Source: a virus
Taxonomy: Duplodnaviria > Caudoviricetes
Virus record (IMG/VR): IMGVR_UViG_3300037419_002279
Location: 1 to 64,000 of that record
Strand: one strand, 5' to 3'
Length of the DNA: 64,000 nucleotides
Part shown: positions 3,317-55,702 of the stretch, in pieces
Layout of the letters: each line of letters starts with the position of its first letter
Position numbering within the stretch: the stretch's first letter is position 1
Position numbers and translations under genes: made by a program
Notes under the pieces: generated by a model
The model's database searches: none
What the model was told of the DNA's origin: nothing
The model's input: the letters and a program-made list of their open reading frames with translations, nothing else

Positions 3317-3760
3317 ATGACCGCTATGTCGGACTACCTGGAAAACAAGCTGATCGATCACGTCTTCCGCGGCGTTGCCTATACCGCGCCGGCCGGGCTG
3401 TATGTCGCGCTGCTGACCGCAGCGCCTTCGGACACCGGCGGCGGCACAGAGGTGTCCGGCGGCTCTTACGCGCGCGTCAATCTGGCGCCGAGCACGACGA
3501 ACTGGGCGTCAACGGGCGGCGCGGGAACGACAACCAACCCAAGCGCCGGAACGTCCGGGACCACGTCCAACAACTCGACCATTACGTTCGCATCGCCGAC
3601 GGCGAACTGGGGCACGATTACCCATGTGGGGATCTATGACGCCTCAACCGCTGGGAACCTGCTGGTCTGGACCGCCCTGACAACGTCGAAGACGGTCAAT
3701 AACGGCGACGCCGCACCGAGCTTTGCCGCCGGTGCGCTGACCTTCCAGATCGACAACTAA
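3317..3760 (+). CDS. Conserved virion-associated protein (SDYLENKLIDH..EVSGGSYAR family)
   Basis: MSDYLENKLIDHVFRG, EVSGGSYARV, WGTITHVGIYDA motifs; GGAG RBS. Confidence 0.6.
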   Translation: MTAMSDYLENKLIDHVFRGVAYTAPAGLYVALLTAAPSDTGGGTEVSGGSYARVNLAPSTTNWASTGGAGTTTNPSAGTSGTTSNNSTITFASPTANWGTITHVGIYDASTAGNLLVWTALTTSKTVNNGDAAPSFAAGALTFQIDN

Positions 3761-3772
3761 GGGGCCTGACCG

Positions 3773-4225
3773 GTGGCGACAATCCTCGAACGCACGACGC
3801 CAAGCGCGATCGGAACGTCGCCCTTTACGTCCGCCGATCTGACGTCGCTGGCAGCGGGCGCGTATATCCTTGGCAGCAATGCGATCACGCCACCGGCGAC
3901 AGCGACGTTGCTCGACTTTCGGCTCGTGCTGCCGTCGTCGATAACCCCGACAGCCGGCGGAACAGTCACCCTGTTTTTCCTGCCGCAAGTCGATGGCACG
4001 AACTATCCGAACCCGCCGGGCAGTACGACGGCCGCCGTGCCGTCGCAGTATTACGCCGGGAGCTACGTATTCAACGGCAACGCAACGACGGTCATCGATA
4101 TTCTCAACATGCGATGCCCCGACTACACGTTCGAGGTCGCCTGCTGGAACAACGGCAGCGTCAGTTTCCCCAGCAGCGGAACGTTCACCAACACGCTCTA
4201 CGGCAAAAGCTATCAGATGGTGTGA
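3773..4225 (+). CDS. Hypothetical virion-associated protein
   Basis: GTG start after GGGG; Thr/Ser-rich beta-type composition; packed in the operon. Confidence 0.5.
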   Translation: MATILERTTPSAIGTSPFTSADLTSLAAGAYILGSNAITPPATATLLDFRLVLPSSITPTAGGTVTLFFLPQVDGTNYPNPPGSTTAAVPSQYYAGSYVFNGNATTVIDILNMRCPDYTFEVACWNNGSVSFPSSGTFTNTLYGKSYQMV

Positions 4226-8221: not shown

Positions 8222-9847
8222 ATGACGACGGTGTACCGCACGTTCAACGCGAGCGATATCGCGTACGCGCTGGGCCATCCGCTGGCGATCAGCGGCCCGG
8301 TGACCGTATCCGGCCCCTATACCCTACGGCTGAACCTGACGGCCGACACGCAATTGACATTGCCGCCCTCGGGCCAGTTGGCGACGCTGCCGATCTTCAC
8401 CGCACAGATCGCCGACTGGGCGGCCGCGACCGGCGCCTTTGTCCCCCCGGTGTCGTCGGTCGCCGGGCGCACGGGCAATGTTGTCCTTTCGGCGGCCGAC
8501 ATCCCGGATCTCTCGGCGACAGACATCCCGGACTTCGCGTCGTGGGCCGCGGCGGCTGCGCCGATTCGGACCGTGTTCGGCCGCACGGGTGACATCGCCT
8601 TGCAGGTCGCTGATCTGCCCGCCTCGGGCGTCGCCCCCGGCGTCTACACCCGCGCAACCGTCACGGTCGATGCAGCCGGGCGCGTCACATCGGCGTCCAG
8701 CGGCAGTGCCAGTGCGGGCACGGTCAGCAGCGTCGGCCTGTCGATGCCGTCGGGCTTTACTGTCGCCGGATCCCCGGTCACAGCCTCGGGCACGATCGGC
8801 GTCACGCTGACCAGCCAGACTGCCAAATTCGTCCTGGCCGCGCCCACCGGTTCGGCCGGCGTCCCGTCCTGGCGGCAACTCGTCACCGCAGACATCTCGA
8901 ATTTCACGACCGACGCCGCCGCTGCCGCGCCGGTGCAGAGCGTCTTCGGGCGCGGGGGCACCGTCGTGCTGCAAGCCGGGGATTTGCCCACATCCGGCGT
9001 GACCGCCGGCAGCTACACGGCCGCAAACATCACCGTCGATGCCGCCGGCCGCGTGACGTCTGCGGCCAACGGATCGTCTGGCAGCGGCTCGGGCACGGTG
9101 ACCAGCGTCGATATGACCGTGCCCTCCGGATTCGCGGTCAGCGGCAATCCGGTCACCGGCGCCGGCACGCTGGCGATCAGCCTGACCAGCCAGACGGCGA
9201 AATTTGTCCTCGCCGCGCCGACCGGCTCGGCGGGTGCGCCGTCATGGCGGCAACTGGCCGCGGGCGACGTCTCGGGCCTCGCCGCGTCGGCGACGACGGA
9301 TGCCACCAATGCGGCGAATATCGGCAGCGGCAACCTGCCGGCGGCGCGGATCACGGCGAACCTGTCGTCGGCGATCGATACCGCGGTCGGATCGACGCGC
9401 GGCGCGGTGCTCTATCGCGGCGCATCGGGCTGGGCGATTCTGGCGCCCGGAACGTCGGGTAATGTGCTTCAGACCAACGGCGCCGGCGCTGACCCGTCCT
9501 GGGCGGCCCAGACCGGCGGCTCGGGCACAGGCACCGTCCCGGTCACGACCGTCGCCGCGTCAGGCACGGCGCAGACGATCAGCTTCCCTGCGGCCGGATC
9601 GGTCGCCTACGACGTGACCCTGACCGGGAACTGCACCTTCAGCCTTTCGGGCGGCACGGCGGGCCAGCTTCAGACCATCACGCTGATTCTGCGCGAAGAC
9701 GCGACCGCAGGGCGCACGATCACCCTGCCCGGCACGATCAAGTGGTCGGGCGGCCTCGCGCCAACCTTCGATACCGGGGCCGGCGCCATCAACATCGTCC
9801 GGCTGATGACGCCGGATGCCGGTGCGACGGTCTTCGGAAGCTACTAA
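8222..9847 (+). CDS. Fibre-like repeat protein, copy A
   Basis: V(S/Q)SV(A/F)GRTG.V.L, VT.GSYT.ANITVD..GRVT and GTVTSV repeats typical of fibre shafts. Confidence 0.6.
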   Translation: MTTVYRTFNASDIAYALGHPLAISGPVTVSGPYTLRLNLTADTQLTLPPSGQLATLPIFTAQIADWAAATGAFVPPVSSVAGRTGNVVLSAADIPDLSATDIPDFASWAAAAAPIRTVFGRTGDIALQVADLPASGVAPGVYTRATVTVDAAGRVTSASSGSASAGTVSSVGLSMPSGFTVAGSPVTASGTIGVTLTSQTAKFVLAAPTGSAGVPSWRQLVTADISNFTTDAAAAAPVQSVFGRGGTVVLQAGDLPTSGVTAGSYTAANITVDAAGRVTSAANGSSGSGSGTVTSVDMTVPSGFAVSGNPVTGAGTLAISLTSQTAKFVLAAPTGSAGAPSWRQLAAGDVSGLAASATTDATNAANIGSGNLPAARITANLSSAIDTAVGSTRGAVLYRGASGWAILAPGTSGNVLQTNGAGADPSWAAQTGGSGTGTVPVTTVAASGTAQTISFPAAGSVAYDVTLTGNCTFSLSGGTAGQLQTITLILREDATAGRTITLPGTIKWSGGLAPTFDTGAGAINIVRLMTPDAGATVFGSY

Positions 9848-12056: not shown

Positions 12057-13187
12057 ATGACATCTATCCGCTCGTACGGTCTGGCTGCCCTGTTGCTGGG
12101 GCTGCTGCCGGCGTCCGCCTTCGCGCAATGCGCCGGGCAGCACCGCATCCCGTTCGACTGCGCCACCGTCTCCTCTATCGCGCCGGGCGATGTCTTCCTC
12201 GGCGGCACCGTCAGCAACACCGCGACGGTGAAGTTTACCGCCGCGCAGGTGGCGGGCCTGGCGCCAGTTCAAACGGTGTTCGGCCGCACCGGGGCGGTGG
12301 TGCTGCAAGGATCGGACCTGCCGACCTCGGGCGTCACGCCCGGCAGCTATACGAACGCCAACATCACGATCGACGGGACCGGCCGCATAACCGCCGCGAC
12401 GAATGGGTCCTCGGGCGTCCCCGGCTCGGGGACCGTGACCAGCGTCGGACTGACGATGCCATCGGGCTTCACCGTCAGCAACAGCCCGATTGTCGATAGC
12501 GGCACGCTGGCGGTTTCGCTCTCGTCTCAGACCGCCAAATTCGTCCTCGCCGCACCGAACGGATCGGCAGGCACCCCGACCTGGCGGCAGCTTGTGGCAA
12601 CCGATGTGTCCGGGCTGGCAACTTCGGCGACGACCGACACAACGAACGCCGCCAACATCAGCAGCGGCAATCTTGCCGCCGCGCGGATGTCAACGAACCT
12701 GTCGGCTGCGATCGACACAGCGATCGGATCGACGCGCGGGTCGATCCTGTTCCGCGGCCTGTCGGGCTGGTCGCTTCTCGCCCCGGGCACCGCAGGCCTC
12801 GTGCTGCAAACCAATGGTGCCGGTGCTGATCCGACCTGGGTCGCGCAGACCGGCGGCACGGGCGGGCCGGCGACGGTGCCGGTGACGACGGTGGCAACCT
12901 CGGGCAGCGCGCAGACGGTGTCATTCCCGGCGAACGGTAGCGCGGCTTACGACATCACGTTGACCGCGAATTGCACGATCACCGTCAGCGGCGGCACCGC
13001 CGGGCAGATGCAGCAGATCACGGTGTTTCTGCGCCAGGATGCTACCGCAGGACGGACGCCGACCTTCCCCGCAGGTGTCCGCTGGTCCGGCGGCGCACCG
13101 CCCGCGTTCAACACGACTGCCGGGCGCATCGACGTTGTGACGCTGACCACGCCCGATGCGGGCGCGACGGTCTTCGGGAGCTACTAA
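12057..13187 (+). CDS. Fibre-like repeat protein, copy B, with predicted Sec signal peptide
   Basis: AAAGGGG RBS; [23 protein letters not shown]|Q; remainder paralogous to 8222-9847, both ending [12 protein letters not shown]. Confidence 0.65.
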
Positions 13188-13189
13188 CC

Positions 13190-15955
13190 ATGTCGCTTGT
13201 ATATCTCTCGAACGACGCGACGACGGGCATCGACGCGACCAACGCGCTGCCGTCCGGCTTTACCCAGACCGGCGGCTCCTGGTCCGTCAATTCCAGCACG
13301 ACGTGGCTTGGCCACTCGAAGCAACTGTCTGCCAATAGCGCCGCGAACAATCAGCTCGCCGTTCTGACCGGCGCCGGCACCCGTGCCGATCAAGAACTGT
13401 TCTTCACGATCCCCTACAACGCGGCGACGACCGGCAGCGAGCTATTGGAGCCGCTCGTGCGCATGGACGCCGCGGGCACCTCGACCGCCTATATGTTCAT
13501 CCTGCTGTTCGATGCCGGAAGCCCCGCCCCATCCGCAACAAGCGCGCATTTGTGGGTGTTCAAGCGTTCCGGCGGCGACAGCCTGGTTAACAATTCGTCG
13601 GTCATCAATTTCCCGGCCAACTCGACCGCGATCTCCTGTCGTGTTCAGGCTGTCGGGACCACGATCCGCGGCAAGTTCTGGGCGACGCAGACCGCCGAGC
13701 CGACCGCGTGGACCTATTCTTTTACCGACGCCGCCATCGCCAGCGGCTACTGCGGCTTTAACACCAACATCCAGGCCGGCGGCTTCTCGCCCGGCGCTGC
13801 CGATATCATCGTCAATGCCATCACCACCAATCAGGTGATGGTCAATCAGCCGGCGGCGGTCACCACCTCGACCAGCTTCACCGTGACGGGCGTTTACGAG
13901 GGCACCGCACCGACGGCGATGGATTACGCCTTCGACGCGACGGCGCCCGGAACATGGACAGCGTTCACCAGCTTCAGCGCATCGGGCGGCACATGGACGG
14001 GGACGGCGACCTCGCCGTCCGCGGCGGGCCTGCACACGCTGATCGTGCGCGACCACAACACCACGACGGTGCAGAACGCATCGCCGGCCTTCACCGTCAA
14101 TGCGCCGGCGTCGATCACCGTCACCACGCCGAGCACGCTGACGCAGAGCGCGTCCTACTCGCTGTCGGGCAGCTACACCGGGACCGCGCCGACCAATGTG
14201 CAGTACGCCTATGACGGCGGGTCCAGCTACACCGCCCTGACCGGGTTCTCAGCATCGGGTGGCGCCTGGTCAGGCACCGCGACCGCGCCCTCGGCCACCG
14301 GATCGCACACGGTTACGGTGCAGGAGACGAACAACACCGCGATCACCGCGACGTCCGGAAGCTTTACGGTGACGGTGTCGTCAACGATTCAGGTCACCAC
14401 GCCGGGGACGTTGGCGCAGAGCGCGTCCTATACGCTTTCCGGGACCTATGGGGGGACCGCACCGACCGGGGTGCAGTACGCCTATGACGGCGGGTCGAGC
14501 TACACAGTCCTGACCGGGTTCACCGCATCAGGCGGCACTTGGTCGGGCACAGGAACGGCGCCTTCGACCGCGGGGTCCCACACTGTCACCGTTCAGGAAA
14601 CGAATAACACCGCCATCACCTCGACGTCGGGTAGTTTCACCGTATCGGCGTCGAATGCGATCACCGTCAACACGCCGGGCACGGTGACTGCCGGATCGTC
14701 CTTCTCGATCAGCGGCAGCTATACCGGCACAGCGCCGACCGGGCTCAACTACAGCTTCAACGGCGGCACGAGCTACAGCACCGCGTCGGGCTTTTCGGCA
14801 TCCGGCGGCTCATGGTCGGCGATCGCCACCGCGCCCGGTAGCGCCGGCTCCTATCAGGTGACGGTGCAGGAAGCCAATGCGACCGGTGTCACAGCGACCT
14901 CGGGCAATTTCACCGTTGCCACCGGCACGATCACCATCGATCCGTCGAACGCGGCGATCATTTACTCGCCGTACACGTGGAACGTGACCGCCGGTGCGGC
15001 GCAGACCATCAATCCGGGGGCGTATTTCCGCGTCCTGTTCAGCGGCAATACGGTCGGCCTGACGTTCAACGTGGCGAACTTGTCTTCGCCGCAGTCGCAG
15101 ATCTGGGCGCGCGTCGATTTCGGCCCCTGGACGCAATACACCGTGGCGTCCTCGATCTCGCTGACGATCCCGGCTGCCACGCTTGGGAACACCGATTTCC
15201 CCTATCACTTGCTCGAAGTCATGGTGAAGTCGACCTCGGAAACGCTGAACCGCTGGAACAGCCCCTACAACACCGCTGTCATCCTGACCGGCATCGTGCT
15301 GGCCTCGGGGGCCACGGTGCTGCAAGGCTTGCGGGCGCCGCGCAATGTGCTGATCTACGGCGATTCAATCACCGAGGGCGTGCGCACGGTCGGCGAATCA
15401 GCGACCAATGATACCGACCGCAACGATGCCATGACGTCCTACGCCTATCATCTTGGCCGCGTGCTCTTAGGCGCTGAAGTCGGCGTTGTCGGCTTCGGCG
15501 CGCAGGGGATCAACAACAGCGGGTCGGGCAACGTTCCGGGCATGGTCAGCGCCTGGAATCAGCTCTATTCGGGGGCCTCGCGCAGCTTCACGCCGCAACC
15601 TGACATGATCATCATCAATCAAGGTGGTAACGACGGAAACAACGACACCCATGTGAGCATGACGACGATCCTGAACGGGCTGCTCGCGGCCTGCCCGAAC
15701 GCCGCGATCGTCGTGACGACGCCGATGCGATCGTCCGGCCAGCCGGCGTTTCTGCAACAGGCGATCGCCGCGTGCAACAATCCCCAACGCATCCGCTATC
15801 TCGATACGATCACCAATCCTTTCTACAATCCGGCGTTGGGCTCGGACACGTTGAACTTCCATCCGAACGGGCCGAACAGCGTCGCCTTCGTCGCACCGAA
15901 ATTCGCCGCCGCGGTGAAGGACTGGTTCCCCTCGCGGGGTGCCACGCACTACTAG
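13190..15955 (+). CDS. SGNH/GDSL hydrolase with Ig-like modules, copy B
   Basis: IYGDSITEG, GFGAQG, NQGGND, LNFHP; paralog of 9847-12042 with extra ~90-aa repeats. Confidence 0.8.
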   Translation: MSLVYLSNDATTGIDATNALPSGFTQTGGSWSVNSSTTWLGHSKQLSANSAANNQLAVLTGAGTRADQELFFTIPYNAATTGSELLEPLVRMDAAGTSTAYMFILLFDAGSPAPSATSAHLWVFKRSGGDSLVNNSSVINFPANSTAISCRVQAVGTTIRGKFWATQTAEPTAWTYSFTDAAIASGYCGFNTNIQAGGFSPGAADIIVNAITTNQVMVNQPAAVTTSTSFTVTGVYEGTAPTAMDYAFDATAPGTWTAFTSFSASGGTWTGTATSPSAAGLHTLIVRDHNTTTVQNASPAFTVNAPASITVTTPSTLTQSASYSLSGSYTGTAPTNVQYAYDGGSSYTALTGFSASGGAWSGTATAPSATGSHTVTVQETNNTAITATSGSFTVTVSSTIQVTTPGTLAQSASYTLSGTYGGTAPTGVQYAYDGGSSYTVLTGFTASGGTWSGTGTAPSTAGSHTVTVQETNNTAITSTSGSFTVSASNAITVNTPGTVTAGSSFSISGSYTGTAPTGLNYSFNGGTSYSTASGFSASGGSWSAIATAPGSAGSYQVTVQEANATGVTATSGNFTVATGTITIDPSNAAIIYSPYTWNVTAGAAQTINPGAYFRVLFSGNTVGLTFNVANLSSPQSQIWARVDFGPWTQYTVASSISLTIPAATLGNTDFPYHLLEVMVKSTSETLNRWNSPYNTAVILTGIVLASGATVLQGLRAPRNVLIYGDSITEGVRTVGESATNDTDRNDAMTSYAYHLGRVLLGAEVGVVGFGAQGINNSGSGNVPGMVSAWNQLYSGASRSFTPQPDMIIINQGGNDGNNDTHVSMTTILNGLLAACPNAAIVVTTPMRSSGQPAFLQQAIAACNNPQRIRYLDTITNPFYNPALGSDTLNFHPNGPNSVAFVAPKFAAAVKDWFPSRGATHY

Positions 15956-17061: not shown

Positions 17062-17229
17062 ATGCTGACGATCCTGATCATCATCGTGCTGCTGCTCGCC
17101 CTCGGCGCGCTGCCGGCCTGGCCGTATTCCCGGTCCTGGGGCTACTATCCCGCCGGCGGCCTCGGCTTGATCGTGATCATACTGCTGATCGTCATAGTGT
17201 TTACCGGTGTCGGTCCGTTTCGCTACTAG
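17062..17229 (+). CDS. DUF3309 small membrane protein
   Basis: MLTILIIIVLLLALGALPAWPYSRSWGYYPAGGLGLIVIILLI matches the family pattern LP.WPYSR.WGY.P.GGLG. Confidence 0.85.
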   Translation: MLTILIIIVLLLALGALPAWPYSRSWGYYPAGGLGLIVIILLIVIVFTGVGPFRY

Positions 17230-19759: not shown

Positions 19760-19858
19760 TCACTGTTCCGTCCGGAAACGGTCGATTGAGCCGCGCCGTA
19801 AAGCCGCATAGGAGGCGATAATCGCAGCCTTGCAATCCCGTTCCGCCGGTTCATCCAT
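19760..19858 (-). CDS. 32-aa ORF divergent from the peptide array
   Basis: AGAGGGGG RBS; MDEPAERDCKAAIIASYAALRRGSIDRFRTEQ. Confidence 0.3.
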   Translation of the reverse strand: MDEPAERDCKAAIIASYAALRRGSIDRFRTEQ

Positions 19859-19962
19859 CGCATGCCCCCTCTGATGTATTTGTTGGCCGATGCAGGCTAT
19901 TGGATACCCTTGTGTAAAGTTGTTATCTGTGCTTCTGTTCCTCTGGAACCGGAGTATGCGAC

Positions 19963-20073
19963 ATGAAGGCGTTGCTCTTGGCTATCGCGCTACTTGCCGG
20001 CATTGGCGTCGGCGCGACGATCTACATCGGAATACAACCGGCGCATGCGGAATGCGGCGGCCCGAACTGCTGA
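19963..20073 (+). CDS. Secreted Cys-peptide precursor 1 (predicted core ECGGPNC)
   Basis: GGAG RBS; MKALLLAIALLAGIGVGATIYIGIQPAHA|ECGGPNC. Confidence 0.85.
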   Translation: MKALLLAIALLAGIGVGATIYIGIQPAHAECGGPNC

Positions 20074-20085
20074 TAGGCCCATGCC

Positions 20086-20199
20086 ATGAAAACCTGTCTC
20101 CTTCTGATCATACTCCTGGCAGGCTTCGGCGGCATTGGTGCGGCTACCTACATCTCTGCACAACCGGCGCATGCAGAGTGCAGCGGCCCGAACTGCTGA
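20086..20199 (+). CDS. Secreted Cys-peptide precursor 2 (core ECSGPNC)
   Basis: MKTCLLLIILLAGFGGIGAATYISAQPAHA|ECSGPNC. Confidence 0.85.
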   Translation: MKTCLLLIILLAGFGGIGAATYISAQPAHAECSGPNC

Positions 20200-20212
20200 T
20201 AGGCGTATTCAC

Positions 20213-20326
20213 ATGAAGATCCTGCTTTTGCTGGGCGTCCTAGTCGTTAGCTTCACCGGCGCCGGCGTGGCTGCTTACCTCGCCGCGCAGCCGGCGTATG
20301 CAGACTGCACCGGCCCGAACTGCTGA
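20213..20326 (+). CDS. Secreted Cys-peptide precursor 3 (core DCTGPNC)
   Basis: MKILLLLGVLVVSFTGAGVAAYLAAQPAYA|DCTGPNC. Confidence 0.85.
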   Translation: MKILLLLGVLVVSFTGAGVAAYLAAQPAYADCTGPNC

Positions 20327-20336
20327 TAGACCTGCC

Positions 20337-20453
20337 ATGAAAACCTGTCTCCTTGTGCTCATGCTCCTGGCAGGCTTCGGCGGTGGTCTGGCTGTCTATC
20401 TTGCCGTCCAACCGGCGCACGCAGAGGGCGGCTGCAGTGGCTCGAACTGCTGA
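20337..20453 (+). CDS. Secreted Cys-peptide precursor 4 (core EGGCSGSNC)
   Basis: MKTCLLVLMLLAGFGGGLAVYLAVQPAHA|EGGCSGSNC. Confidence 0.85.
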   Translation: MKTCLLVLMLLAGFGGGLAVYLAVQPAHAEGGCSGSNC

Positions 20454-20465
20454 TAGGCCCATGCC

Positions 20466-20582
20466 ATGAAAGCCTATCTCCTCGTGATCCTGCTCCTGGG
20501 CGCCCTCGGCGGCATCGGTGTGGCTGCCTACATCGCCGCGCAGCCGGCGCAGGCGCAGGGATGCACTGGTCCGAACTGCTGA
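20466..20582 (+). CDS. Secreted Cys-peptide precursor 5 (core QGCTGPNC)
   Basis: MKAYLLVILLLGALGGIGVAAYIAAQPAQA|QGCTGPNC. Confidence 0.85.
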   Translation: MKAYLLVILLLGALGGIGVAAYIAAQPAQAQGCTGPNC

Positions 20583-20629: not shown

Positions 20630-20812
20630 GTGCTCCCGAAGACTGATGACCGTCTATGGCAGATCCAGGCACCGCACTTCACGGCGGGAGCCGAGTTCAT
20701 CAACGGTGTCTGCTCGCGTGCCGCGCCGATCATCCGCTGGATGGTCGGCAAGACCGATGTGGATCTGCAAGCGCACTGTCGGCGCAAGGGCTGGACGATA
20801 ACGGCCTGCTAA
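20630..20812 (+). CDS. Small conserved phage protein (APHF.AG..RAAPI family)
   Basis: QIQAPHFTAG..SRAAPIIRWMVGK..CRRKGW; GTG start inferred after AAGG. Confidence 0.6.
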   Translation: MLPKTDDRLWQIQAPHFTAGAEFINGVCSRAAPIIRWMVGKTDVDLQAHCRRKGWTITAC

Positions 20813-26420: not shown

Positions 26421-26635
26421 GGCGTCGCGCAGGCCCGCACCGCCATCACCCGCAGCGTGCAGGTAAAGCGGGCCGCGGCGTCCGACCAAACGAGCGCCGG
26501 GCACGGGGCGCTTGCGTGCGGATAGGCAATGCGCGCAGCGGCGCAGGTGCCGACCGCACAGCAGAGGCCGCAACCGTTGCAGGGGCTGCCTTCCTCGGGT
26601 TTTGTGGGCGGCAGCCAGGGCGGACGGTCGGACAT
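26417..26635 (-). CDS. Cys-rich metal-cluster microprotein
   Basis: KP..GSPCNGCGLCC..C..PCPAL.W..FTC. Confidence 0.55.
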   Translation of the reverse strand: MSDRPPWLPPTKPEEGSPCNGCGLCCAVGTCAAARIAYPHASAPCPALVWSDAAARFTCTLRVMAVRACATP

Positions 26636-26708
26636 AGAGTCATACCTACGGCGGCTGATGTATGACTTGTCGCATAGGGCGATTCCCTTTTTCCACAGCG
26701 AAATGGGG

Positions 26709-26891
26709 TCAGCCGGTCAGCTTCGTCTTCCAGCGCGCCTGGCACTCGTTGCAGGCCCATTCGCCGGCTTCCTCCGGGATCGGCCAGCGGTTGTCGGTGT
26801 AGGACTGGCCGCAGAAATCACAGTTCTCTGGCAACCCGCCGCGCAGCGCCACCAGCAGGTCGAAGGCGGCGCGGTTGAAGTCGTCACTCAC
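26709..26891 (-). CDS. Small zinc-finger protein
   Basis: CDFC..WACNEC. Confidence 0.55.
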   Translation of the reverse strand: MSDDFNRAAFDLLVALRGGLPENCDFCGQSYTDNRWPIPEEAGEWACNECQARWKTKLTG

Positions 26892-27199
26892 GACCCATCC
26901 CAAGATATCAGGCGCGACAGGTCGATCATCCCGGCCTCTTCGAGGGCGTGCACGGCAAGGGCGATCTGCATTGTGCGTTCGCTCATCACGTTGACGATGC
27001 GCACGCGGCCGCCGCGCAGCCGATCGACGATGCGCCGGCGCAGATCGTCGTGTTCAGCCTCGTTTTCTGGCCAGACGCGGTCGGGGTCCAGGGCCGGATC
27101 GCCATCGGTGTCGATCTCGATCAGGACCGCGATGACCTTGCCGCCGGCGGGAGGGCGCGGTCGGTCCACATGTTCCGTGTCGTCCTGGGTCTTATTCAT
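26888..27199 (-). CDS. Hypothetical protein
   Basis: GGAGGAG RBS. Confidence 0.55.
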   Translation of the reverse strand: MNKTQDDTEHVDRPRPPAGGKVIAVLIEIDTDGDPALDPDRVWPENEAEHDDLRRRIVDRLRGGRVRIVNVMSERTMQIALAVHALEEAGMIDLSRLISWDGS

Positions 27200-27503
27200 G
27201 GGCTCCTCCGGTAATGGTGACCTCGGCGATACCGTCGTGCTCAAAACCGAGCCGCCGGGCGGCGGCCCGGGTTACGTCTATGACGCGACCGCGGACATAG
27301 GGTCCGCGGTCTGTGACAGTCAGACTGACACAGCGGCGATAGCGTATGGTGCAGACGCGGATCTGACTGCCAAGGCCGAAGGTGCGGGAGGCGGCGGTCA
27401 TCGCGTCATTGCGAAACGGGCGGCCGTTCGCCATCGGCCGCCCTTCGAACCAGGATCCGTAGTATGACGCGATGCCGGTCTGCGTGACCTGATCCGCGGC
27501 CAC
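27192..27503 (-). CDS. rlpA: RlpA-type (DPBB) lytic transglycosylase domain, no signal peptide
   Basis: GIASYYG..MANG.PF..MTAA..LGS.IRV..VTDRGPY..RVIDV..AA..LG. Confidence 0.85.
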   Translation of the reverse strand: MAADQVTQTGIASYYGSWFEGRPMANGRPFRNDAMTAASRTFGLGSQIRVCTIRYRRCVSLTVTDRGPYVRGRVIDVTRAAARRLGFEHDGIAEVTITGGAHE

Positions 27504-30711: not shown

Positions 30712-31368
30712 TCAGCGATCCGCTAGGACGGCCGGCAAGTGCTTGCGCACATACTCGATCGGCGAGGCCGCGATGACTGACTGATCCGCCAGTAAACCGC
30801 CGTCATAGCCGACGAGTGTGCAGAGTCCGTTCGGCTGTACTGACAGCACGCGCAGCAGCACCGTGCCGTCGGCGATTTCGGCGACGCATTCGAGGCCGTG
30901 CAGGTCGCGCAGGCGGAAGCGGTCCGGCCTGACGCTGCGATGGAACACAATATCCCCGGCGCGGTAGGCGGGGCGTAAGCTGTCATCGGTGACCGCGGTC
31001 GCGACCAGATCGCCGGCGTCCTCGGGGGAAATGTTGAGTGCAACAGTATCAGGTGCTGTCAAGATAGCTGCGACTTTTCCGCCCTGGCCGATGCGTGAGA
31101 CGATCGGGATTTGCGCATACGCGGTGACTTCGGCGCCATAAAGCAGGGTACCGGGTTTGAGATCAAGCATGCGCTCGTAATCGCGTGCTGCTTCCCACTG
31201 AAATTCGCGGGTGCCGTTTTCATGGTGTTGGTAGGTGGCGATTTTGATGCCGGCCGTTTGCGCAAAGGCGGCGGCGGATTTGTAGCCGGCGGCGATTCGG
31301 GCTTCGCGTAGCCGTTCGGCCGCGGTCATTTCGTCAGTCGCTAATTTGAGCATTATTTTCCGTGCCAC
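30712..31368 (-). CDS. CI-like repressor (HTH + degenerate S24 domain)
   Basis: ERLREARIAAGYKSAAAFA..ATYQHHENGTRE; DSLRPAYRAGD; start GTG 31368 or ATG 31353. Confidence 0.85.
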   Translation of the reverse strand: MARKIMLKLATDEMTAAERLREARIAAGYKSAAAFAQTAGIKIATYQHHENGTREFQWEAARDYERMLDLKPGTLLYGAEVTAYAQIPIVSRIGQGGKVAAILTAPDTVALNISPEDAGDLVATAVTDDSLRPAYRAGDIVFHRSVRPDRFRLRDLHGLECVAEIADGTVLLRVLSVQPNGLCTLVGYDGGLLADQSVIAASPIEYVRKHLPAVLADR

Positions 31369-31378
31369 GTTCGGTGTC

Positions 31379-31430
31379 TCTGTGCAGGCCGCACAGATCG
31401 ATTGACATAGGCTGTGCGCTGCGTATTGAT
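31379..31430. promoter_or_regulatory. cI/cro operator-promoter region
   Basis: TCTGTGC-N5-GCACAGA (31379-31397); TTGACA 31402-31407; CTGTGCG 31412-31418; TATTGAT 31424-31430. Confidence 0.75.
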
Positions 31431-31438
31431 TTCTCGGC

Positions 31439-31807
31439 ATGGGAGCCCGAGAGGATAAATGGCCGGCCGACGCAAGCTACCGACCGATCCTGGCGCGCTG
31501 GCCGTCGGTCTCAGCACTCGCGCACGACCTCGGGCTGCCGATCGACACCGTCTATAGCTGGCGCCGCCGCGATAGTTTGCCGCAAGGCAAATGGGGTGCG
31601 ATCTGGGAAGCGGCGCGCGTGCGCGGCTACCGCGACGTAACCTATCGCCGTCTGCGTGCCATCGCCGCTGAACGTGCCCGTATTTCAGCCGACCTCTCCG
31701 ACAATGACGGCGTGTTACCACAGCCCGAGTGTGTTCAAAGTGCACAGATTCGAGGGGTCCGGCAACCGAAAACCATAACGCGATCGGAAGCAGAGCCATG
31801 CCCCTAG
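31439..31807 (+). CDS. Cro-like protein
   Basis: ILARWPSVSALAHDLG..TVYSWRRRDSLP..W..I; divergent from the repressor; no SD, so possibly near-leaderless. Confidence 0.75.
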   Translation: MGAREDKWPADASYRPILARWPSVSALAHDLGLPIDTVYSWRRRDSLPQGKWGAIWEAARVRGYRDVTYRRLRAIAAERARISADLSDNDGVLPQPECVQSAQIRGVRQPKTITRSEAEPCP

Positions 31808-42030: not shown

Positions 42031-42153
42031 GTTCGGTGTCCTTCATTGTTGCCGGGCGTATTCGCCTCGGTGACGGAACTATAGGCGAGTAATTCAGAAT
42101 ATAACGAATGCGTTTAGAGCGCTCGACGAGTGCTCAAAGAGCATAGGCGGGGA

Positions 42154-44997
42154 ATGACCCAACTACAGATCGAATACAGGCCGGTAGAAGCCTTGATCCC
42201 GTATGCGCTGAACCCGAAAACGCATTCGGATGCGCAGATCGCCGCGATCGGCGAGTCGATGCGCGAATTCGGCTGGACGAACCCGGTGCTGATCGACGGC
42301 CGGGGCGGGATCATCGCCGGACACGGCCGCATCGCCGCGGCGAAGGCGCAGGGGATCAGCGACGTCCCCTGCATCGTCCTCGATCACCTGAATGACGCGC
42401 AGGTACGCGCCCTGGTCACGCTGGACAACTGGCTGACCGAACACGGCGCGTCCTGGAACCTGCCGCTGCTGCAAGGCGAGATTGCCGCGCTGTCGGACAT
42501 GAAGTTCGACCTCGAACGCTTCGGCATGACAGCGCCGAACCTGACCGCCGCCTTCCCGGGTCTGTTCGCCGCCGGCACCGGTGCAGCACCGCTGGCGGAA
42601 CGCACCGCCCCCGTCGGTAACCTGGCCGACCGCTTCGGCCTGCCGCCGTTTTCTGTCCTGTCCGCCCGCGACGGATGGTGGCAGGCACGCAAGCGGGCCT
42701 GGCTGCGCTTAGGCATCCGCTCCGAACTCGGCCGCGGCGTCGAAAACCCCGACGATCCGCAACTGACCTACAAAGGCCAGGCCAGCCTCAACGCGATCAC
42801 CGGTCAGCGCAAAGCCGGGCTGCTATACGGCGAACAGAGCGCCGAATTCGATCATTACCGCCGGCGCGAAGGCACCCGCCCAGCGCTTGCCGAAGAAGGC
42901 GACGCCCGGCAGGTGATCGGGACATCGATCTTCGATCCGGTGCTCTGCGAATTGGCCTATCGCTGGTTCTGCCCGCCCGGCGGTGCCGTCCTCGACCCGT
43001 TTGCCGGCGGATCGGTCCGCGGTGTTGTCGCCGCCTGGCTCGGCCGGCAGTATGTCGGCGTCGATCTGTCCGGCCGGCAGATCGCGGCAAACAGAGAACA
43101 ATGGGAGGCTATCCGCGAAGGCCGGCCGACAGCGAAGCCTGAACCCATCATCGAGGATCCTGCCGCGTTGACGCCGATCCAGGCCGTCGGCGACGTGCTG
43201 GTCAAACGCGATGACCTGTTCGAATTCGCCGGCGTACCCGGGGGCAAAGTCCGAACCTGTCTTGCCCTAGCCCGGGCCGCCCTTGCGGCAGGGCAAGGCG
43301 GGCTTGTCACCGCCGGGTCGCGGGCAAGCCCCCAGGTCAACATCGTCGCCCGCGTGGGCCGCGCCCTGGGCCTGCCGGTGCGGTGCCACACCCCGCAGGG
43401 CAAGCTGGCCCTTGAAGTCCAGGCCGCCCTCGAAGCAAGGGCAGAAGTCATCCAGCACAAAGCCGGGCACAACACCGTCATCGTCGCCCGCGCCCGCGAA
43501 GACGCCGCCGCCCGCGGCTGGGCGGAAATCCCCTTCGGCATGGAATGCCTCGAAGCGATCACCCAGACGCGGCGCCAGGTCGCGAACGTCCCGCCCGATG
43601 TCCGACGCATTGTCATCCCCGTCGGATCCGGCATGTCAGCCGCCGGCGTGCTCTGGGGCCTGATCGATCAGGGCCTGTCGATGCCGGTCATCGGCGTCGT
43701 CGTCGGCGCTGATCCCGCCGATCGGCTGGATCACCATGCGCCGCAGGACTGGCGCGACCGCATGACGCTGATCCCGTCCGGGTCGGACTATCACGAGCCG
43801 GCCGCGCAAACAGCGTTCGGACATCTCGACCTCGACCCCCACTACGAAGCGAAGTGCATCGATTTCCTTGAGCCCGGTGACCTGCTCTGGATCGTTGGCG
43901 TGCGCGCCACGTCCAGACTGGCGTCCCGGCCGGCGTCGACTTCAGTCGTGGCACCGTCGGCCGGGTCTGCCCTGCGCTGGCGCGTGGGCGCAAAGACGAT
44001 GACCGCCCGCCATGACTGCACCCTGTCCGGCATCCAGACCCGCTGCGGCGGCGGTTGCTGCCGCGCCGGGCCGTCCCGCAGTTACTGGCCGGCGCGCGCC
44101 TACGGCGATGTCTGCGGCAACCTCGGCCCGTCCGGCTGCACCCTGTCCCCGGACGACAAGCCGGTGACCTGCCTGCTCTATCCGCTGGTGGCCCACGACG
44201 ATAAGGGCTCGATCGTGCTGCATCATCGGACCCGGCTGCCGACGTCGGTCTGCCGCGGCAATTACGGCCAGGGGCCGATGCTGATCGATGCGATCGAAGG
44301 CAACCTGCGCACGCTGTTCGGCGATGCGCAATTCGAGCGGGTGCATGCCGAGGTCACCGCCGGGCGCGACAGCTATTTCGACGTCCCGCCCGATATCGCC
44401 GAAGCCGTCCGCCGCGAACACGGCTGGGCCGAGCATGCGATCAAGCCGGTGCCGCGGTCGCAGGCGGGGACGATACCAGAGTCCACACCGCCCGCGCGGC
44501 CCGATCCGGTCTGGATCGAAGGAGACTCACGTGCGATCGCCGATCTCCTGCCGGCGGATTTCGAAGCCGACTTCATCTGGACCTGCCCGCCCTACGCGGA
44601 CCTCGAAGTCTACAGCGACCATCCGGCCGATCTGTCGGCAATGTCAGACCCGGACTTTACTGACGCCTATCGGCAGATCATCGCCGCAGCCTGCGCGCGG
44701 CTGAAGCCGGACCGGTTCGCCGCGATTACCGTGGGCGAAGTGCGCGATGATCGGGGCATGTGCCGCAACCTGCCCGGCCTGACGATCGAGGCGTTCGAAG
44801 CGGCCGGCCTGAAGCTCTACAACGACGCGATCCTGGTCACCGCCGTCGGCAGCCTGCCGATCCGTGTCGGCCGGCAATTCACCGCCGCCCGCAAGCTCGG
44901 ACGGACCCATCAATCGGTGCTGGTGTTCATCAAGGGCGACCCGAAAGCGGCAACGGCCGCGTGCGGGGACGTCGAATTCGGGGACGCGCCCACATAG
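42154..44997 (+). CDS. ParB-like + amino-DNA-methyltransferase interrupted by PLP-enzyme and Cys-rich domains
   Basis: PYALNPKTH..FGWTNPVLID..IIAGHGR; DPFAGGS (42994); KRDDL..GGKVR (43246); CGGGCC..CLLYP; TCPPY (44581). Confidence 0.85.
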   Translation: MTQLQIEYRPVEALIPYALNPKTHSDAQIAAIGESMREFGWTNPVLIDGRGGIIAGHGRIAAAKAQGISDVPCIVLDHLNDAQVRALVTLDNWLTEHGASWNLPLLQGEIAALSDMKFDLERFGMTAPNLTAAFPGLFAAGTGAAPLAERTAPVGNLADRFGLPPFSVLSARDGWWQARKRAWLRLGIRSELGRGVENPDDPQLTYKGQASLNAITGQRKAGLLYGEQSAEFDHYRRREGTRPALAEEGDARQVIGTSIFDPVLCELAYRWFCPPGGAVLDPFAGGSVRGVVAAWLGRQYVGVDLSGRQIAANREQWEAIREGRPTAKPEPIIEDPAALTPIQAVGDVLVKRDDLFEFAGVPGGKVRTCLALARAALAAGQGGLVTAGSRASPQVNIVARVGRALGLPVRCHTPQGKLALEVQAALEARAEVIQHKAGHNTVIVARAREDAAARGWAEIPFGMECLEAITQTRRQVANVPPDVRRIVIPVGSGMSAAGVLWGLIDQGLSMPVIGVVVGADPADRLDHHAPQDWRDRMTLIPSGSDYHEPAAQTAFGHLDLDPHYEAKCIDFLEPGDLLWIVGVRATSRLASRPASTSVVAPSAGSALRWRVGAKTMTARHDCTLSGIQTRCGGGCCRAGPSRSYWPARAYGDVCGNLGPSGCTLSPDDKPVTCLLYPLVAHDDKGSIVLHHRTRLPTSVCRGNYGQGPMLIDAIEGNLRTLFGDAQFERVHAEVTAGRDSYFDVPPDIAEAVRREHGWAEHAIKPVPRSQAGTIPESTPPARPDPVWIEGDSRAIADLLPADFEADFIWTCPPYADLEVYSDHPADLSAMSDPDFTDAYRQIIAAACARLKPDRFAAITVGEVRDDRGMCRNLPGLTIEAFEAAGLKLYNDAILVTAVGSLPIRVGRQFTAARKLGRTHQSVLVFIKGDPKAATAACGDVEFGDAPT

Positions 44998-51546: not shown

Positions 51547-52845
51547 GTGCCCTTCAAGTCCTGGAAGCCCCCGCACAACGCGGCGGCGTGGAAGCTGCTC
51601 GCCCATGTCGGGCCGGCGTTCGACGAACCGCCGCTGCCGCCGGTGCCGAAGGGCATGAAGCAGGGCGCGGGCGTCATCGTCCGCGAGCCCGACGGCCGCA
51701 TCTGGCTGATGCATCCGAAAAAGGGTTACGGCGGCTACAAGGCGACCTTCCCCAAGGGCACAGTCGAGTCCGACATCGGGCCGCGCGCAACCGCGATCAA
51801 AGAGGCCTACGAAGAAACCGGCCTGCATGTCCGCCTGACCGGCTACGCGGGCGATGTGAAGCGCACGACGTCGGTCGGCCGCTACTACTACGCCGAACGG
51901 GTCGGCGGCACGCCGGCCGATGCCGGCTGGGAAGCGTCCGGCGTCAGCCTGGCCGAACCGGACGCGCTGCATAAGCTGCTGAACGCCCCGCACGATAAGG
52001 CGCTGGCGTCCGCGGTGACCGGCGGGGCGCCCCTGCCGCCGGTAGAGTCCGCACCCGACAAAGCGCCGACAAAAACCGACGACGCGCCGACGAAAGCCGG
52101 CGGCGTTCCTGAAAAGGCCCCGGCAAATCCGACAAAGGCACAGGATGTTCCCGACATAAGCGCCTGGAAGAAGGTCGGCGCGCAACTCGGCTCGAACCCC
52201 GGCGGCACCTACACCGACCCGTCGGGCGCGAAGTGGTACGCGAAGCAGCAGAAGTCCGAACATCACGCGCGCAACGAGGCGCTCGCCTCGGCGCTGTATC
52301 AGGCCGCCGGTTCGCCCGTCGTCAACAGCAAGCTGGTCAAGTTCGGCGACACCTGGGGCACGGCGACGCCCTGGCTCGACGGCGAGAAGCACGACATCGG
52401 ATCGAAGCCTTCGCAGGCGGATCGCGACGCCGCGGCGGAAGACTTCGCGACGCATGCCTGGCTGTCGAACCGCGACGCGGTCGGCCTCGATTATACGAAC
52501 CAGGCGAAAATCGACGGCAAGATGCGCACGATGGACGTCGGCGGCGCGCTGGAATTCCGTGCGCAAGGCGGGAAGAAGCCCAGCTTCGGCGATACCGCGG
52601 ACGAATGGGACAGCCTGCGCAACGCCGGGATCAACCCGCAGACGCATGCCGTCTACGGCGCGATGACGCCGGCACAACTGAAGGCCTCGGCCGCGAAGGT
52701 CGCAGCGGTCCCGGATCAGACAATCCGGACCCTGGTCGATCAGCATGGGCACGGCGACGCGGCGGCAAAGAAGGCGCTCGCCGAGAAGCTGATCGCGCGC
52801 AAGGCCGACATCGCGGCCCGGGCCGCCGCCCTGTCCGACAAATAG
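51547..52845 (+). CDS. NUDIX hydrolase + HipA/PI3-4-kinase-like protein (frame open from 51481, probably continuing the portal extension)
   Basis: FPKGTVE..AIKEAYEETGL Nudix box; LGSNPGG..WYAK..NEALAS.LY..NRD..N..MDVGG. Confidence 0.8.
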   Translation: MPFKSWKPPHNAAAWKLLAHVGPAFDEPPLPPVPKGMKQGAGVIVREPDGRIWLMHPKKGYGGYKATFPKGTVESDIGPRATAIKEAYEETGLHVRLTGYAGDVKRTTSVGRYYYAERVGGTPADAGWEASGVSLAEPDALHKLLNAPHDKALASAVTGGAPLPPVESAPDKAPTKTDDAPTKAGGVPEKAPANPTKAQDVPDISAWKKVGAQLGSNPGGTYTDPSGAKWYAKQQKSEHHARNEALASALYQAAGSPVVNSKLVKFGDTWGTATPWLDGEKHDIGSKPSQADRDAAAEDFATHAWLSNRDAVGLDYTNQAKIDGKMRTMDVGGALEFRAQGGKKPSFGDTADEWDSLRNAGINPQTHAVYGAMTPAQLKASAAKVAAVPDQTIRTLVDQHGHGDAAAKKALAEKLIARKADIAARAAALSDK

Positions 52846-52867: not shown

Positions 52868-55702
52868 ATGACCGATGCCCTGTTCCCGCGGGCCGGCACC
52901 TGCCGCCGTGCGATCCCCCGCCTGATCCTGCCCCGCCCCGGGCTGATGGCGCGCGACGACTGGCAGGCGCACCTGCACCCGCGCGACGAGACGGGCAAGT
53001 TCACGTCCGGCCCCGGATCGCATGCAGAGTCGACGCCGAAGCATCCGGCCTGGATGGGCAAGACCGGCCAGGCGTTCTACGACGAAGTCGTCAACGGCCT
53101 CGGCTCGAAGCATCACGACGAAATTGCCCAGGCGCTGAAGGACAAGGCCGCGACGCTGAAGGCCGGCGACTATTCGTCCTATGCGAACAAGCTGCTGGCG
53201 CACGTCGAACAGGCGCACGGGCTGGAAAAGGGCAAGCTCGGCAAGGCAAAGCCGATGGGCAAGGCGGCCCCGCCGGCCGCGAAGGAACCGCCGGCACCGG
53301 CGCCCGAACCCGCGAAGGCACCCGACGTCGACGCCGAGTTCAAGTCGATGGTCGACGAAGCCCTGGCGACCGGAAGTCCGCAGCAGCACGCCGAATTCCT
53401 CGAAGGTCTGATCCCGCACACCGAAGGCGCGAAGAAGGCATACCTTGAGGGTCAGCTTGCTGATCTGAAGGGCAAGATCGCCGCCGGCACGGCGAAGGGC
53501 GAAGCGACCGAAGCGCCGCTATCGGCGGAAAAGGCCGCGCGCAAAGCCGAGATCGAAGCCGCCGAGGAACCGGCTGCACCGCCGCCGGAAATCGCAGCGC
53601 TGCCCGATCCGGCGACGAAGGTGCAGAAGAATATTCACGACCTGATGCAGTCCGACCTGCCGGTCGAGAGCATCAAGCAGAAGATCGCGAACATCGCCGA
53701 GGCGTCGCAGCACCCGCCGAACAAGGCGTATGCCGAACAGGCCCTGGCGCTGCTGGAACAACAGGCCGGCACAGCCGCGCCGTCGATGCAGGACGAAGCC
53801 TACGCCGAAGCGTCGAAGGCGCTCACGGAAAAGGGCAACATCGGCTTCTGGCTTGACCTGGCGAACAGCAACGGCGTCGATCCGGACGCCGCGGTCGGGA
53901 TCAAGCAGGCGATCGCCGAATGGCAGGACGCCAATCCGCCCGACGACGATGAGCCCGCGTTCTTCGCGCCGGCGGAACCTGAAGCGCCCGAACCGGCGGC
54001 GCCGATGACGACCGAACAGGTCGACTCCCTCTATCCGGACGTGTCGGTCGACCTGAAAAGCGCATGGAATGAAGAGATCGCGAAGAACAAGAAAGGCGCG
54101 ATCAAGGACCTTGAGAACGTCATCAAGCATTTTTCCGACAAAACGCCCGAGGCGGAAGTCTCGTGGATGAAGGACAAGGTCGCGGCGCTGAAGGGCGAAG
54201 GCACCGCGCCGGCCCCGCCGGCCGACACCGATCTTCCGAAGCCGGCGAACCCCGCGCAAGAAATCATGGCGTCGGCCCTGACAAAGACCGGCGTCTTTGC
54301 GGACGCATCGCCCGAGACCACCGAGGCGGCGTTCCAGCAGTGGCTCGCCAGCCCGCACATGGCGCCGGAAGACAAGGAATACGCGAAGAAGGTCATCGCG
54401 AAGATGGGCGCCGAGACCGGCGCCGCCCCGGCCGCCCCGGCGCCGATGACGTCAGAACAGGTCGACGCCGCGCATCCGGATGTCACGGAAACCCTGAAGA
54501 AGAACTGGAATCAGTCGATCGCGCAGGATCCGGCAGGGTCGGCGGCAACCTTGCAGAAATACCTAGAGGTCGGCGCCGGTCTGAGCCCGACGCTCAAAGC
54601 CTGGATGAAGGACAAGGTGGCAGCCCTGAACGCCGCCGGTCACGGCACTGCTGCCCCGGCCGAACCCCCGGCGCCACCGCCCGAGCCGCCGGTCAGCCTG
54701 CCCGCGCCGCACCCGTCGTCGAAGGGCCAGACCCTGGTGCACGGCATTGCATCCGGCGAAGGCAGCAAGGCCGACAAGATCGCCAAGATCAAGCAGGCGG
54801 TCGCCGACGACCCGCACCACTTCCCGGCCGGCGGCTACGCGAAGAAGTACGCCGATCAGCTTATCGCGGCCCTGGGCGGCGACCAGACGGCGCAGCAGGC
54901 GGCGCCCAAGCCGGCCGCAGCCGCGGCACCGGCCGCGCCCGCAGCAAAGCCCGCAGCGGCCGACCCGGCGCTGCACACGGCCCCGGCCGGTTCGGCGACG
55001 CACGAGGACGATCACGCCGCGCCGATCCCGGCGTATTTCGTCAACCAGGGCATGAAGGCGAAAAGCCGGGTCAGCGCGCACGACACGCTGAAGCGCATCC
55101 AGAACATCAAGGCGGTTGCCGCGAACGCAAAGACGGTCACGTCGATCACCACGGCGGCGGCGAAGAAGCTCTGCCCGACGGCGACATCGGCCTGGTGGAA
55201 GACAAACGCCGATGCCTCGGTGATCAGCGCAATCCAAAGCTACTCGGGTAGCGGCTACGGCACCATGAACGCGGTGCTGCGCGGCGACAGCAACGACCCG
55301 GCTGCGCTGGCGAAGATCAACCATATCGACGATATGTTCGAGCACGACGAGGCCGCCGTGACCGACGACGTGATCGTGCACCGCGGGGAAAATCTGACGG
55401 ACGACACCGTCATTGCCAAATGGGAAGCGGCGCTGAAGGCCGGCAAGCCGGTGCGCGAGATCAAGCACGGCTTCACGTCCGCATCCCTTGCCGATCACGC
55501 GGCCTTTTCCCACCACAACGTCCAGTATCAGATCACCGTCCGCAAAGGGTCGCGGATGCTGGGCATCGGCGTCAAAGGCGTCTCGGGTTACGGCTCGGAC
55601 GAAAACGAAGTGCTGCTGCGCCACGGCCAGACGTTCGAAATCTACGACATCACACGAGCGAGCAACGGCCGCGTGTTCGTCAAGATGGCCGTCACAACTT
55701 AG
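52868..55702 (+). CDS. Head-associated protein with C-terminal ADP-ribosyltransferase (VIP2-like, R-S-E)
   Basis: HPRDETGKFTSG N-terminus; SYSGSGYGTMN.VLR, HRG (55379), FTSAS (55472), ENE (55601). Confidence 0.85.
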   Translation: MTDALFPRAGTCRRAIPRLILPRPGLMARDDWQAHLHPRDETGKFTSGPGSHAESTPKHPAWMGKTGQAFYDEVVNGLGSKHHDEIAQALKDKAATLKAGDYSSYANKLLAHVEQAHGLEKGKLGKAKPMGKAAPPAAKEPPAPAPEPAKAPDVDAEFKSMVDEALATGSPQQHAEFLEGLIPHTEGAKKAYLEGQLADLKGKIAAGTAKGEATEAPLSAEKAARKAEIEAAEEPAAPPPEIAALPDPATKVQKNIHDLMQSDLPVESIKQKIANIAEASQHPPNKAYAEQALALLEQQAGTAAPSMQDEAYAEASKALTEKGNIGFWLDLANSNGVDPDAAVGIKQAIAEWQDANPPDDDEPAFFAPAEPEAPEPAAPMTTEQVDSLYPDVSVDLKSAWNEEIAKNKKGAIKDLENVIKHFSDKTPEAEVSWMKDKVAALKGEGTAPAPPADTDLPKPANPAQEIMASALTKTGVFADASPETTEAAFQQWLASPHMAPEDKEYAKKVIAKMGAETGAAPAAPAPMTSEQVDAAHPDVTETLKKNWNQSIAQDPAGSAATLQKYLEVGAGLSPTLKAWMKDKVAALNAAGHGTAAPAEPPAPPPEPPVSLPAPHPSSKGQTLVHGIASGEGSKADKIAKIKQAVADDPHHFPAGGYAKKYADQLIAALGGDQTAQQAAPKPAAAAAPAAPAAKPAAADPALHTAPAGSATHEDDHAAPIPAYFVNQGMKAKSRVSAHDTLKRIQNIKAVAANAKTVTSITTAAAKKLCPTATSAWWKTNADASVISAIQSYSGSGYGTMNAVLRGDSNDPAALAKINHIDDMFEHDEAAVTDDVIVHRGENLTDDTVIAKWEAALKAGKPVREIKHGFTSASLADHAAFSHHNVQYQITVRKGSRMLGIGVKGVSGYGSDENEVLLRHGQTFEIYDITRASNGRVFVKMAVTT

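Follow-up and report, generated by a model that had tools for sequence, protein, structure and literature searches.

What use could a tailed phage have for five consecutive genes that each appear to encode little more than an export signal and a few residues framed by two cysteines? The genes lie in a window of 64,000 bases (the whole stretch of DNA that was analysed), which corresponds to bases 1–64000 of an IMG/VR virus record of 73,182 bases (linear, ~91% complete). Standard annotation misses them: an ORF list that starts at 60 aa lacks four of the five copies. The earlier note had described five same-strand ORFs of 36–38 aa lying 10–13 nt apart and ending in two-cysteine tails, and the sequence, the ORF list and a count of the spacers all agree with this description, the five tails being exactly as noted and the start of unit 4 needing a slight adjustment, to 20337. 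The locus is made up of the following parts:

19836..19962 (+ strand): intergenic leader, relatively AT-rich, with GGAG at 19951–19954, 8 nt 5' of the first ATG
19963..20073 (+ strand): unit 1, 36 aa; 29-aa signal-like leader ending in P-A-H-A; tail E-C-G-G-P-N-C
20086..20199 (+ strand): unit 2, 37 aa; tail E-C-S-G-P-N-C
20213..20326 (+ strand): unit 3, 37 aa; site P-A-Y-A; tail D-C-T-G-P-N-C
20337..20453 (+ strand): unit 4, 38 aa; tail E-G-G-C-S-G-S-N-C
20466..20582 (+ strand): unit 5, 38 aa; site P-A-Q-A; tail Q-G-C-T-G-P-N-C
20630..20812 (+ strand): downstream small ORF of 60 aa (start GTG 20630) or 83 aa (start ATG 20561)

All units follow a single plan: M-K, ~22 uncharged residues, Y-x3-Q-P-A-x-A, and a tail of 7–9 residues ending in C-x-G-(P/S)-N-C, followed by TGA. 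In a five-way alignment, M1, K2, Y21, Q25, P26, A27, A29 and, within the tail, C, G, N and the terminal C are invariant, which confirms that the A-x-A site, the C-x4-C spacing and the terminal N-C are constant across the array; the five rings differ only by G, S or T at one position and P or S at another. A profile built from the five units matches exactly these five places in the 73-kb record, with E values of 1e-21 to 1e-25, so the match is not a chance one. At the DNA level the units are 65–83% identical. Junctions 1–2 and 4–5 are identical and the 122-nt block spanning them is 83% identical, and the array therefore grew by duplication in place. All five units end in AAC TGC TGA, followed in four of them by TAG, and the spacers (12, 13, 10 and 12 nt) carry only AGG inside the array. 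No match to the sigma-70 consensus was found in the leader (19836..19962), the promoter and terminator scan gave no usable result, and Rfam had no match in the array. The downstream small ORF has a coding-like GC3 and no family match; no terminator-like site separates it from unit 5, and its co-transcription with the array is possible.

The units are genes and not a mere DNA repeat. Their pooled GC content by codon position (0.65/0.51/0.74) is close to that of the long genes of the window, and in every unit both ATG and TGA are intact, although the spacer lengths are not all divisible by three. Comparison of the paralogue pairs by the Nei–Gojobori method gives pS 0.47, pN 0.23 and dN/dS 0.38. 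Broken down by region across the five paralogues, dN/dS is 0.46 for the n- and h-regions and 0.22 for the c-region and tail, which are thus the most constrained part. The proposal that the h-regions diverge freely while the tail is under selection consequently holds for the tail, and the word 'freely' holds only in relative terms.

The record is clearly that of a tailed phage. The window DNA (~65% G+C) encodes head proteins (portal, Mu-F-like protein, DUF2213 and major capsid protein), tail and lysis proteins (tail fibres, neck-passage protein, GP4-type fibre–tail adaptor and an SLT/endolysin-like protein) and recombination proteins (an Erf-like annealing protein and an exonuclease), together with HTH proteins. 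The host is probably proteobacterial, since relatives of the portal are found in Klebsiella, Ralstonia and Acetobacter phages and the fibre adaptor is of the GP4 type. No match to a tyrosine integrase or a serine recombinase was found in the 73-kb, ~91%-complete record. Small genes of unknown function surround the array, with the tail/SLT module on one side and the leftward recombination genes on the other: 3–4 kb upstream are further small membrane ORFs and an enzyme of the SLT type for lysis or ejection, and genes of the opposite orientation lie between the array and the SLT gene. In the ORFs scanned from 16.6 to 31.4 kb with Pfam and PHROG, we found no receptor-like, TPR, kinase, thioredoxin-fold or peptide-modifying domain; the single ORF of at least 300 aa in the 17–27.8 kb interval (26529–27467) has no family match and weak GC3 support.

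Several other genes of this phage deserve mention in their own right. The gene for a DUF3309 small membrane protein (17062–17229, + strand, Pfam E value 8e-18) directly follows the SLT-like gene and a holin-like ORF, and is the second host-type small membrane gene of the phage. The ORF at 12971–15955 (+) specifies a 994-aa tail-region protein with a C-terminal GDSL lipase/acylhydrolase domain, which is likely a tail enzyme deacylating a receptor or polysaccharide. At 42130–44997 (+), a 955-aa ORF unites, in an unusual fusion, matches to a ParB N-terminal domain (weak, under the Pfam cut-off), to an N6/N4 DNA methylase and to a PLP-dependent enzyme (PALP). After the portal gene and a gene for a NUDIX-domain protein (51547–52845) comes a gene (52868–55702, +) whose 944-aa product carries an ADP-ribosyltransferase exoenzyme domain at its C-terminus and is possibly a virion protein that is ejected and modifies the host. 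Finally, a 242-aa ORF with an Xre-type HTH (30712–31440, −; HTH_31, just under the Pfam cut-off) adjoins the Erf/exonuclease module and could encode a cI-like repressor, despite the absence of an integrase match.

Is the array peculiar to this phage? Known families and known phages gave no relative. With Pfam and NCBIfam, the five peptides and their neighbours yielded only noise (E values up to 1); megablast of the 15–24 kb region against GenBank phages gave no match; and tblastn of unit 2, at E values up to 10, found nothing in 50,697 GenBank phage records or in the PLSDB plasmids. IMG/VR searched with the five-unit alignment returned 597 pattern stretches, none of which was confirmed. A degenerate DNA pattern gave two matches on IMG/VR and 19 on the GTDB representative genome contigs, all of which were discarded as due to chance. 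The same type of search on metagenome contigs led to five loci, and an exhaustive profile search of 1.84 billion representatives recovered seven true relatives and one noise match, besides the window's own three representatives. An 18-sequence profile then brought the family to ~50 distant members, all from metagenomes or MAG-type sources and none with a functional name; P0008 and P0012 were set aside as noise and a clustering artefact, respectively. Among the at most 18 candidates scored per genome, no member was found in a sample of ~1,600 genomes taken from Alphaproteobacteria, Acidobacteriota, Gammaproteobacteria and the order of G001; this result and that of the GTDB pattern scan indicate that the family is rare or patchy. 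The weak profile matches in these genomes are the N-terminal signals or anchors of long exported or membrane proteins, and the first 30 positions of the units thus look like a generic export signal. The protein atlas gave only unnamed clusters under the reliability line, and literature searches on the tail strings and on small peptides secreted by phages gave no description of the family. As no family model or paper was found, the earlier view that no phage system of this architecture has been described stands: neither the family nor its Cys frame, its arrays or its occurrence in a phage of proteobacterial type is described in the libraries and literature searched.

The relatives define the family by very few residues. 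Among the ~50 distant members, just the start Met, the Pro, the −1 Ala and the Cys pair are constant family-wide, in sequences that are otherwise ~34% identical. Counted over 55 distinct units, the leader is 29–32 residues long and begins with M-K/R; Pro lies at −4 to −6, A, V, I or T stands at −3, any of many residues is accepted at −2 (H, Y, Q, R, V, M and others), and Ala occupies −1 in 55 of 55 units. Position +1 is never Pro but rather D, E, C, Q, G and similar residues. The tail comprises 5–11 residues, almost only C, G, N, D and S, and is hypervariable apart from the Cys frame. Exactly two Cys are present in 51 of the 55 tails, with C-x4-C spacing in 36 and a C-terminal last Cys in 43. 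One non-phage member (P0033) has a tail identical to that of phage unit 1. We also observed that three members (P0046, P0050 and P0052) combine the usual leader and a P-A-Y-A site with Cys-free, acidic, Gly-rich tails (D-G-D-D-N-G-G-...), and we read them as a sub-type without Cys.

Arrays are a family trait. P0004 and P0005 lie on one 984-bp contig, several called proteins are two fused units, and a bacterial-looking 15.8-kb metagenome contig (L036) carries five units of its own, from 8253 down to 7608 on the minus strand, with 14–15-nt spacers containing GGAG. The pattern of variation in the L036 array is the reverse of that in the phage: the leader is conserved (pN 0.10, pS 0.38), whereas the tails vary, in ring size as well as in sequence. 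Fused or truncated units (P0004, P0013, P0019 and P0048) point to birth-and-death turnover, and turnover of the same kind is suggested by a 29-codon ORF situated right after the family member of the L051 locus (3688–3777, −), which resembles a second leader without a Cys tail.

The loci of the relatives look bacterial and have no neighbour genes in common. The L036 array lies directly downstream of a 486-aa PAS/LuxR-like ORF (8353–9813), a regulator that has no counterpart in the phage, and its other neighbours include an IS-type HTH protein and an ATP-dependent ligase. At L044, the neighbours encode a cNMP-binding protein, an O-methyltransferase (directly downstream), an aldehyde dehydrogenase and sugar-type oxidoreductases, and at L051 small proteins of unknown function, the O-methyltransferase being absent. 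No conserved neighbour gene was found among the phage, L036, L044 and L051, and translated comparison of 11 kb of the phage with the relatives' loci gave matches from array to array only. The search for a conserved neighbour that might be a receptor, which the earlier note had advised, therefore came out negative, and no receptor gene was found among the ORFs scanned around the phage array either. Nor is the family specific to phages: relatives occur among bacterial metabolic and regulatory genes, one contig having its own five-gene array. Rfam had no match in three of the relatives' loci. As a separate observation, a ~65-nt block 5' of the peptide gene is nearly identical between L044 (2890–2960) and L051 (3940–4010, −), two otherwise diverged loci; it has no Rfam match, of its four substitutions, three are silent when read in a frame that ends in ...EKLLAG(Y/L)EI-stop, and it may be a tiny upstream ORF or a conserved gene end rather than a promoter.

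How, then, might the units work? The reading that we favour, and hold with even confidence, is that they are Sec-targeted micropeptides of host origin from which signal peptidase I would release disulfide loops into the periplasm, and which the phage would have amplified in place for dosage. The positive N-terminus and the hydrophobic stretch would take the precursor into the inner membrane by the Sec or YidC route, with the C-terminus outside according to the positive-inside rule. Signal peptidase I would cut at the small-x-Ala site after the Pro and release into the periplasm an acidic or neutral peptide of 7–9 residues (predicted oxidised mass 676–810 Da), in which the host Dsb system would close C-x4-C into a six-residue ring, disulfide closure by DsbA being established chemistry. 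The masses predicted for the single oxidised peptides are 676.19, 706.21 (shared by two units), 810.23 and 776.26 Da. The gene probably came to the phage from a proteobacterial host lineage and was multiplied in place into five nearly equivalent copies, which would be expressed as one polycistronic accessory ('moron'-type) unit. These copies would serve dosage and not five specificities: since the five tails are nearly alike and are the most constrained part of the units, more product is the simplest reading. The idea that five variants allow several specificities is weakened by the near-identity of the rings and the low dN/dS of the tail (0.22), which dosage fits better. The target of the loops would most likely be a conserved envelope component or a distant host receptor, because it is not encoded next to the genes. 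Likewise, since the loci have no conserved neighbour and PF05114 (MNIO) has no match anywhere in the phage record, the peptides would need no dedicated maturation machinery.

The residue pattern expected of a Sec/signal peptidase I substrate is present: a positive n-region, a hydrophobic h-region, small residues at −3 and −1, and no Pro at +1. Small-x-small with a free middle residue is the (−3,−1) rule of signal peptidase I, and the family invariants form the pattern expected from selection on a site of this type and on a Cys-framed tail. Apart from recognition by signal peptidase I, we see no explanation for this site being the most conserved feature of the sequences. Three points speak against release, namely the long hydrophobic core, the conserved leader of the L036 array and the three members with Cys-free tails. 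The core has a median length of 23 residues (range 16–26, in a 7-residue Kyte–Doolittle window), whereas that of cleaved bacterial signal peptides is usually 7–15 residues long and long cores tend to remain anchors. Conservation of the L036 leader hints that the hydrophobic segment does more than targeting. In sum, of the claim that a signal peptide and a two-Cys tail are under selection, the layout, the purifying selection and the recurrence in ~50 relatives hold good, while cleavage and export are predictions to be weighed against the ~23-residue core. A bacterial lipoprotein processed by signal peptidase II was considered and rejected: after L-A-G in the h-region comes F, I or L and not Cys, and the lipobox is absent. 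In the family as a whole, Cys directly follows A-x-A (tail position 0) in only 11 of the 51 two-Cys units, and without Leu at −3.

The same long core and L036 leader lead us to keep as a strong, if less probable, rival the possibility that the peptides are uncleaved N-in/C-out membrane anchors, in which the 12–14 residues from P-A-x-A on would form a tethered periplasmic disulfide loop regulating a sensor kinase, a transporter or a phage receptor. There is a precedent in MgrB, a 47-aa enterobacterial one-helix micropeptide that inhibits PhoQ, with its N-terminus inside and a functional periplasmic Cys pair. The median core length is typical of anchors that are not cleaved, the helix retains Gly-x-x-Gly-like packing motifs, purifying selection acts strongly on the leader of the L036 array, and some of the nearest non-family profile matches look, by their N-termini, like the signal anchors of membrane-fusion-type proteins. 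However, membrane anchoring would not account for the Ala found at −1 in all 55 units, for a small residue at −3 or for a free −2, and tails of 5–6 residues straight after the site would leave almost nothing to display. The resemblance to MgrB is moreover one of plan and not of homology: no sequence match to MgrB or to any small-membrane-protein family was found in Pfam or NCBIfam, and MgrB is a single-copy, uncleaved protein with a periplasmic part of ~25 residues, whereas the array family has a peptidase-type site before a tail of 5–11 residues. Whether cleaved or anchored, the peptides would present their Cys loop in the periplasm.

Maturation by an enzyme encoded elsewhere, as in RiPP-like precursors with a conserved leader and a hypervariable Cys core (compare the Sec-exported bufferins), seems to us improbable. 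The family does have such a leader and core as well as multi-copy precursor arrays, and an O-methyltransferase is encoded directly downstream in L044, but the related L051 locus lacks this enzyme, none of the loci examined has a conserved modifying enzyme beside it, and the leader is a hydrophobic export signal and not a recognition leader. Bufferins share with the array peptides a Sec signal and a ribosomal origin, and Cys residues are functionally important in them; MNIO, however, is without a match in the phage record and absent from the annotated neighbours of the bacterial loci, and the array tails are far shorter.

Less probable still, and in our opinion very unlikely, is that the units encode membrane-damaging peptides resembling type I toxins or holins/antiholins, or some other lysis accessory. 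A multi-copy phage array of short hydrophobic peptides, 3–4 kb from an SLT-type enzyme and small membrane ORFs, is compatible with such a role; yet the 10–13-nt spacers within one operon leave no room for type I promoters and antisense RNAs, and the array showed no type I toxin–antitoxin features (no promoter-like sites on either strand, no Rfam match). The oppositely oriented genes between the array and the SLT gene, the acidic or neutral tail with its conserved Cys pair, unlike the charged C-terminus of holins, and the non-phage contexts of the bacterial relatives also argue against it. Lastly, we give next to no credence to a non-coding tandem DNA repeat with incidental ORFs, in spite of the 121–132-nt repeat period and of the long antisense ORFs that also cross the region, given a dN/dS well under 1, a coding-like GC3, distant relatives that keep the protein features and not the DNA, and the Arg-rich composition of the antisense ORFs, which is expected of reverse frames in GC-rich DNA and marks them as artefacts.

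The favoured reading, that of exported and cleaved disulfide loops, invites comparison with the peptide signals of Gram-positive bacteria and their phages. AimP/Phr-type systems rely on a small precursor in which an export signal at the N-terminus is joined to a short mature peptide at the C-terminus, AimP being phage-encoded (PMC11323111). This layout, export signal plus short C-terminal peptide, is the known part of the phage array. There is no sequence relation, however: no Pfam or NCBIfam match and no tblastn match in the 50,697 GenBank phage records links the units to arbitrium precursors, none of the ORFs scanned between 16.6 and 31.4 kb matches an AimR-type TPR receptor, and the array has neither an adjacent AimR/Rap-type receptor nor an aimX-like partner. 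It differs from AimP in its five tandem copies instead of one, its Cys-framed and presumably cyclic peptide, its probable proteobacterial host and the absence of an integrase match. With no receptor, integrase or Gram-positive-type uptake logic found, nothing argues for a lysis–lysogeny signal specifically; kinase modulation and superinfection exclusion are possible roles, offered as guesses.

Other likenesses are more distant. STa-type enterotoxins have a Sec signal, a pro-region and three disulfides formed by DsbA within 18–19 residues; they resemble the array peptides in route only (Sec, periplasmic DsbA disulfide, tiny product), with no homology, and nothing suggests that the array peptides are toxic to animals. 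In the conotoxin superfamilies, a conserved signal precedes a hypervariable, Cys-framed mature peptide, which is the same evolutionary pattern as in our family (conserved signal, hypervariable mature part, fixed Cys frame) in unrelated organisms and sequences. The C-x3-N-C ring of oxytocin and vasopressin has the size of the commonest family ring, C-x-G-x-N-C, with Asn likewise before the second Cys, a purely formal resemblance.

Sec-exported short-peptide signalling is textbook knowledge for Firmicutes and their phages, and is to our knowledge essentially undescribed for Proteobacteria and theirs. The family described here, present in one phage and on bacterial-looking contigs, joins a fixed peptidase-type site and Cys frame to hypervariable loops and a tendency to form arrays, and requires no dedicated enzyme. 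A bolder proposal, which we regard as rather unlikely, is that Gram-negative soil bacteria possess an unrecognised, enzyme-independent class of Sec-exported, disulfide-cyclised peptides of 5–11 residues, encoded in fast-diversifying tandem arrays and acting as diffusible signals or envelope ligands, which the phage, having captured and amplified copies of the host type, would counterfeit or jam while it infects; the point behind the counterfeit is that one phage tail is the same as the tail of a relative outside phages. Released loops would count among the smallest ribosomally made cyclic peptides known from bacteria, their masses lying close to the porin limit, and would provide a testable example of host-peptide copying by a phage. 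Anchored ones would represent a new phage-borne class of MgrB-like envelope modulators.
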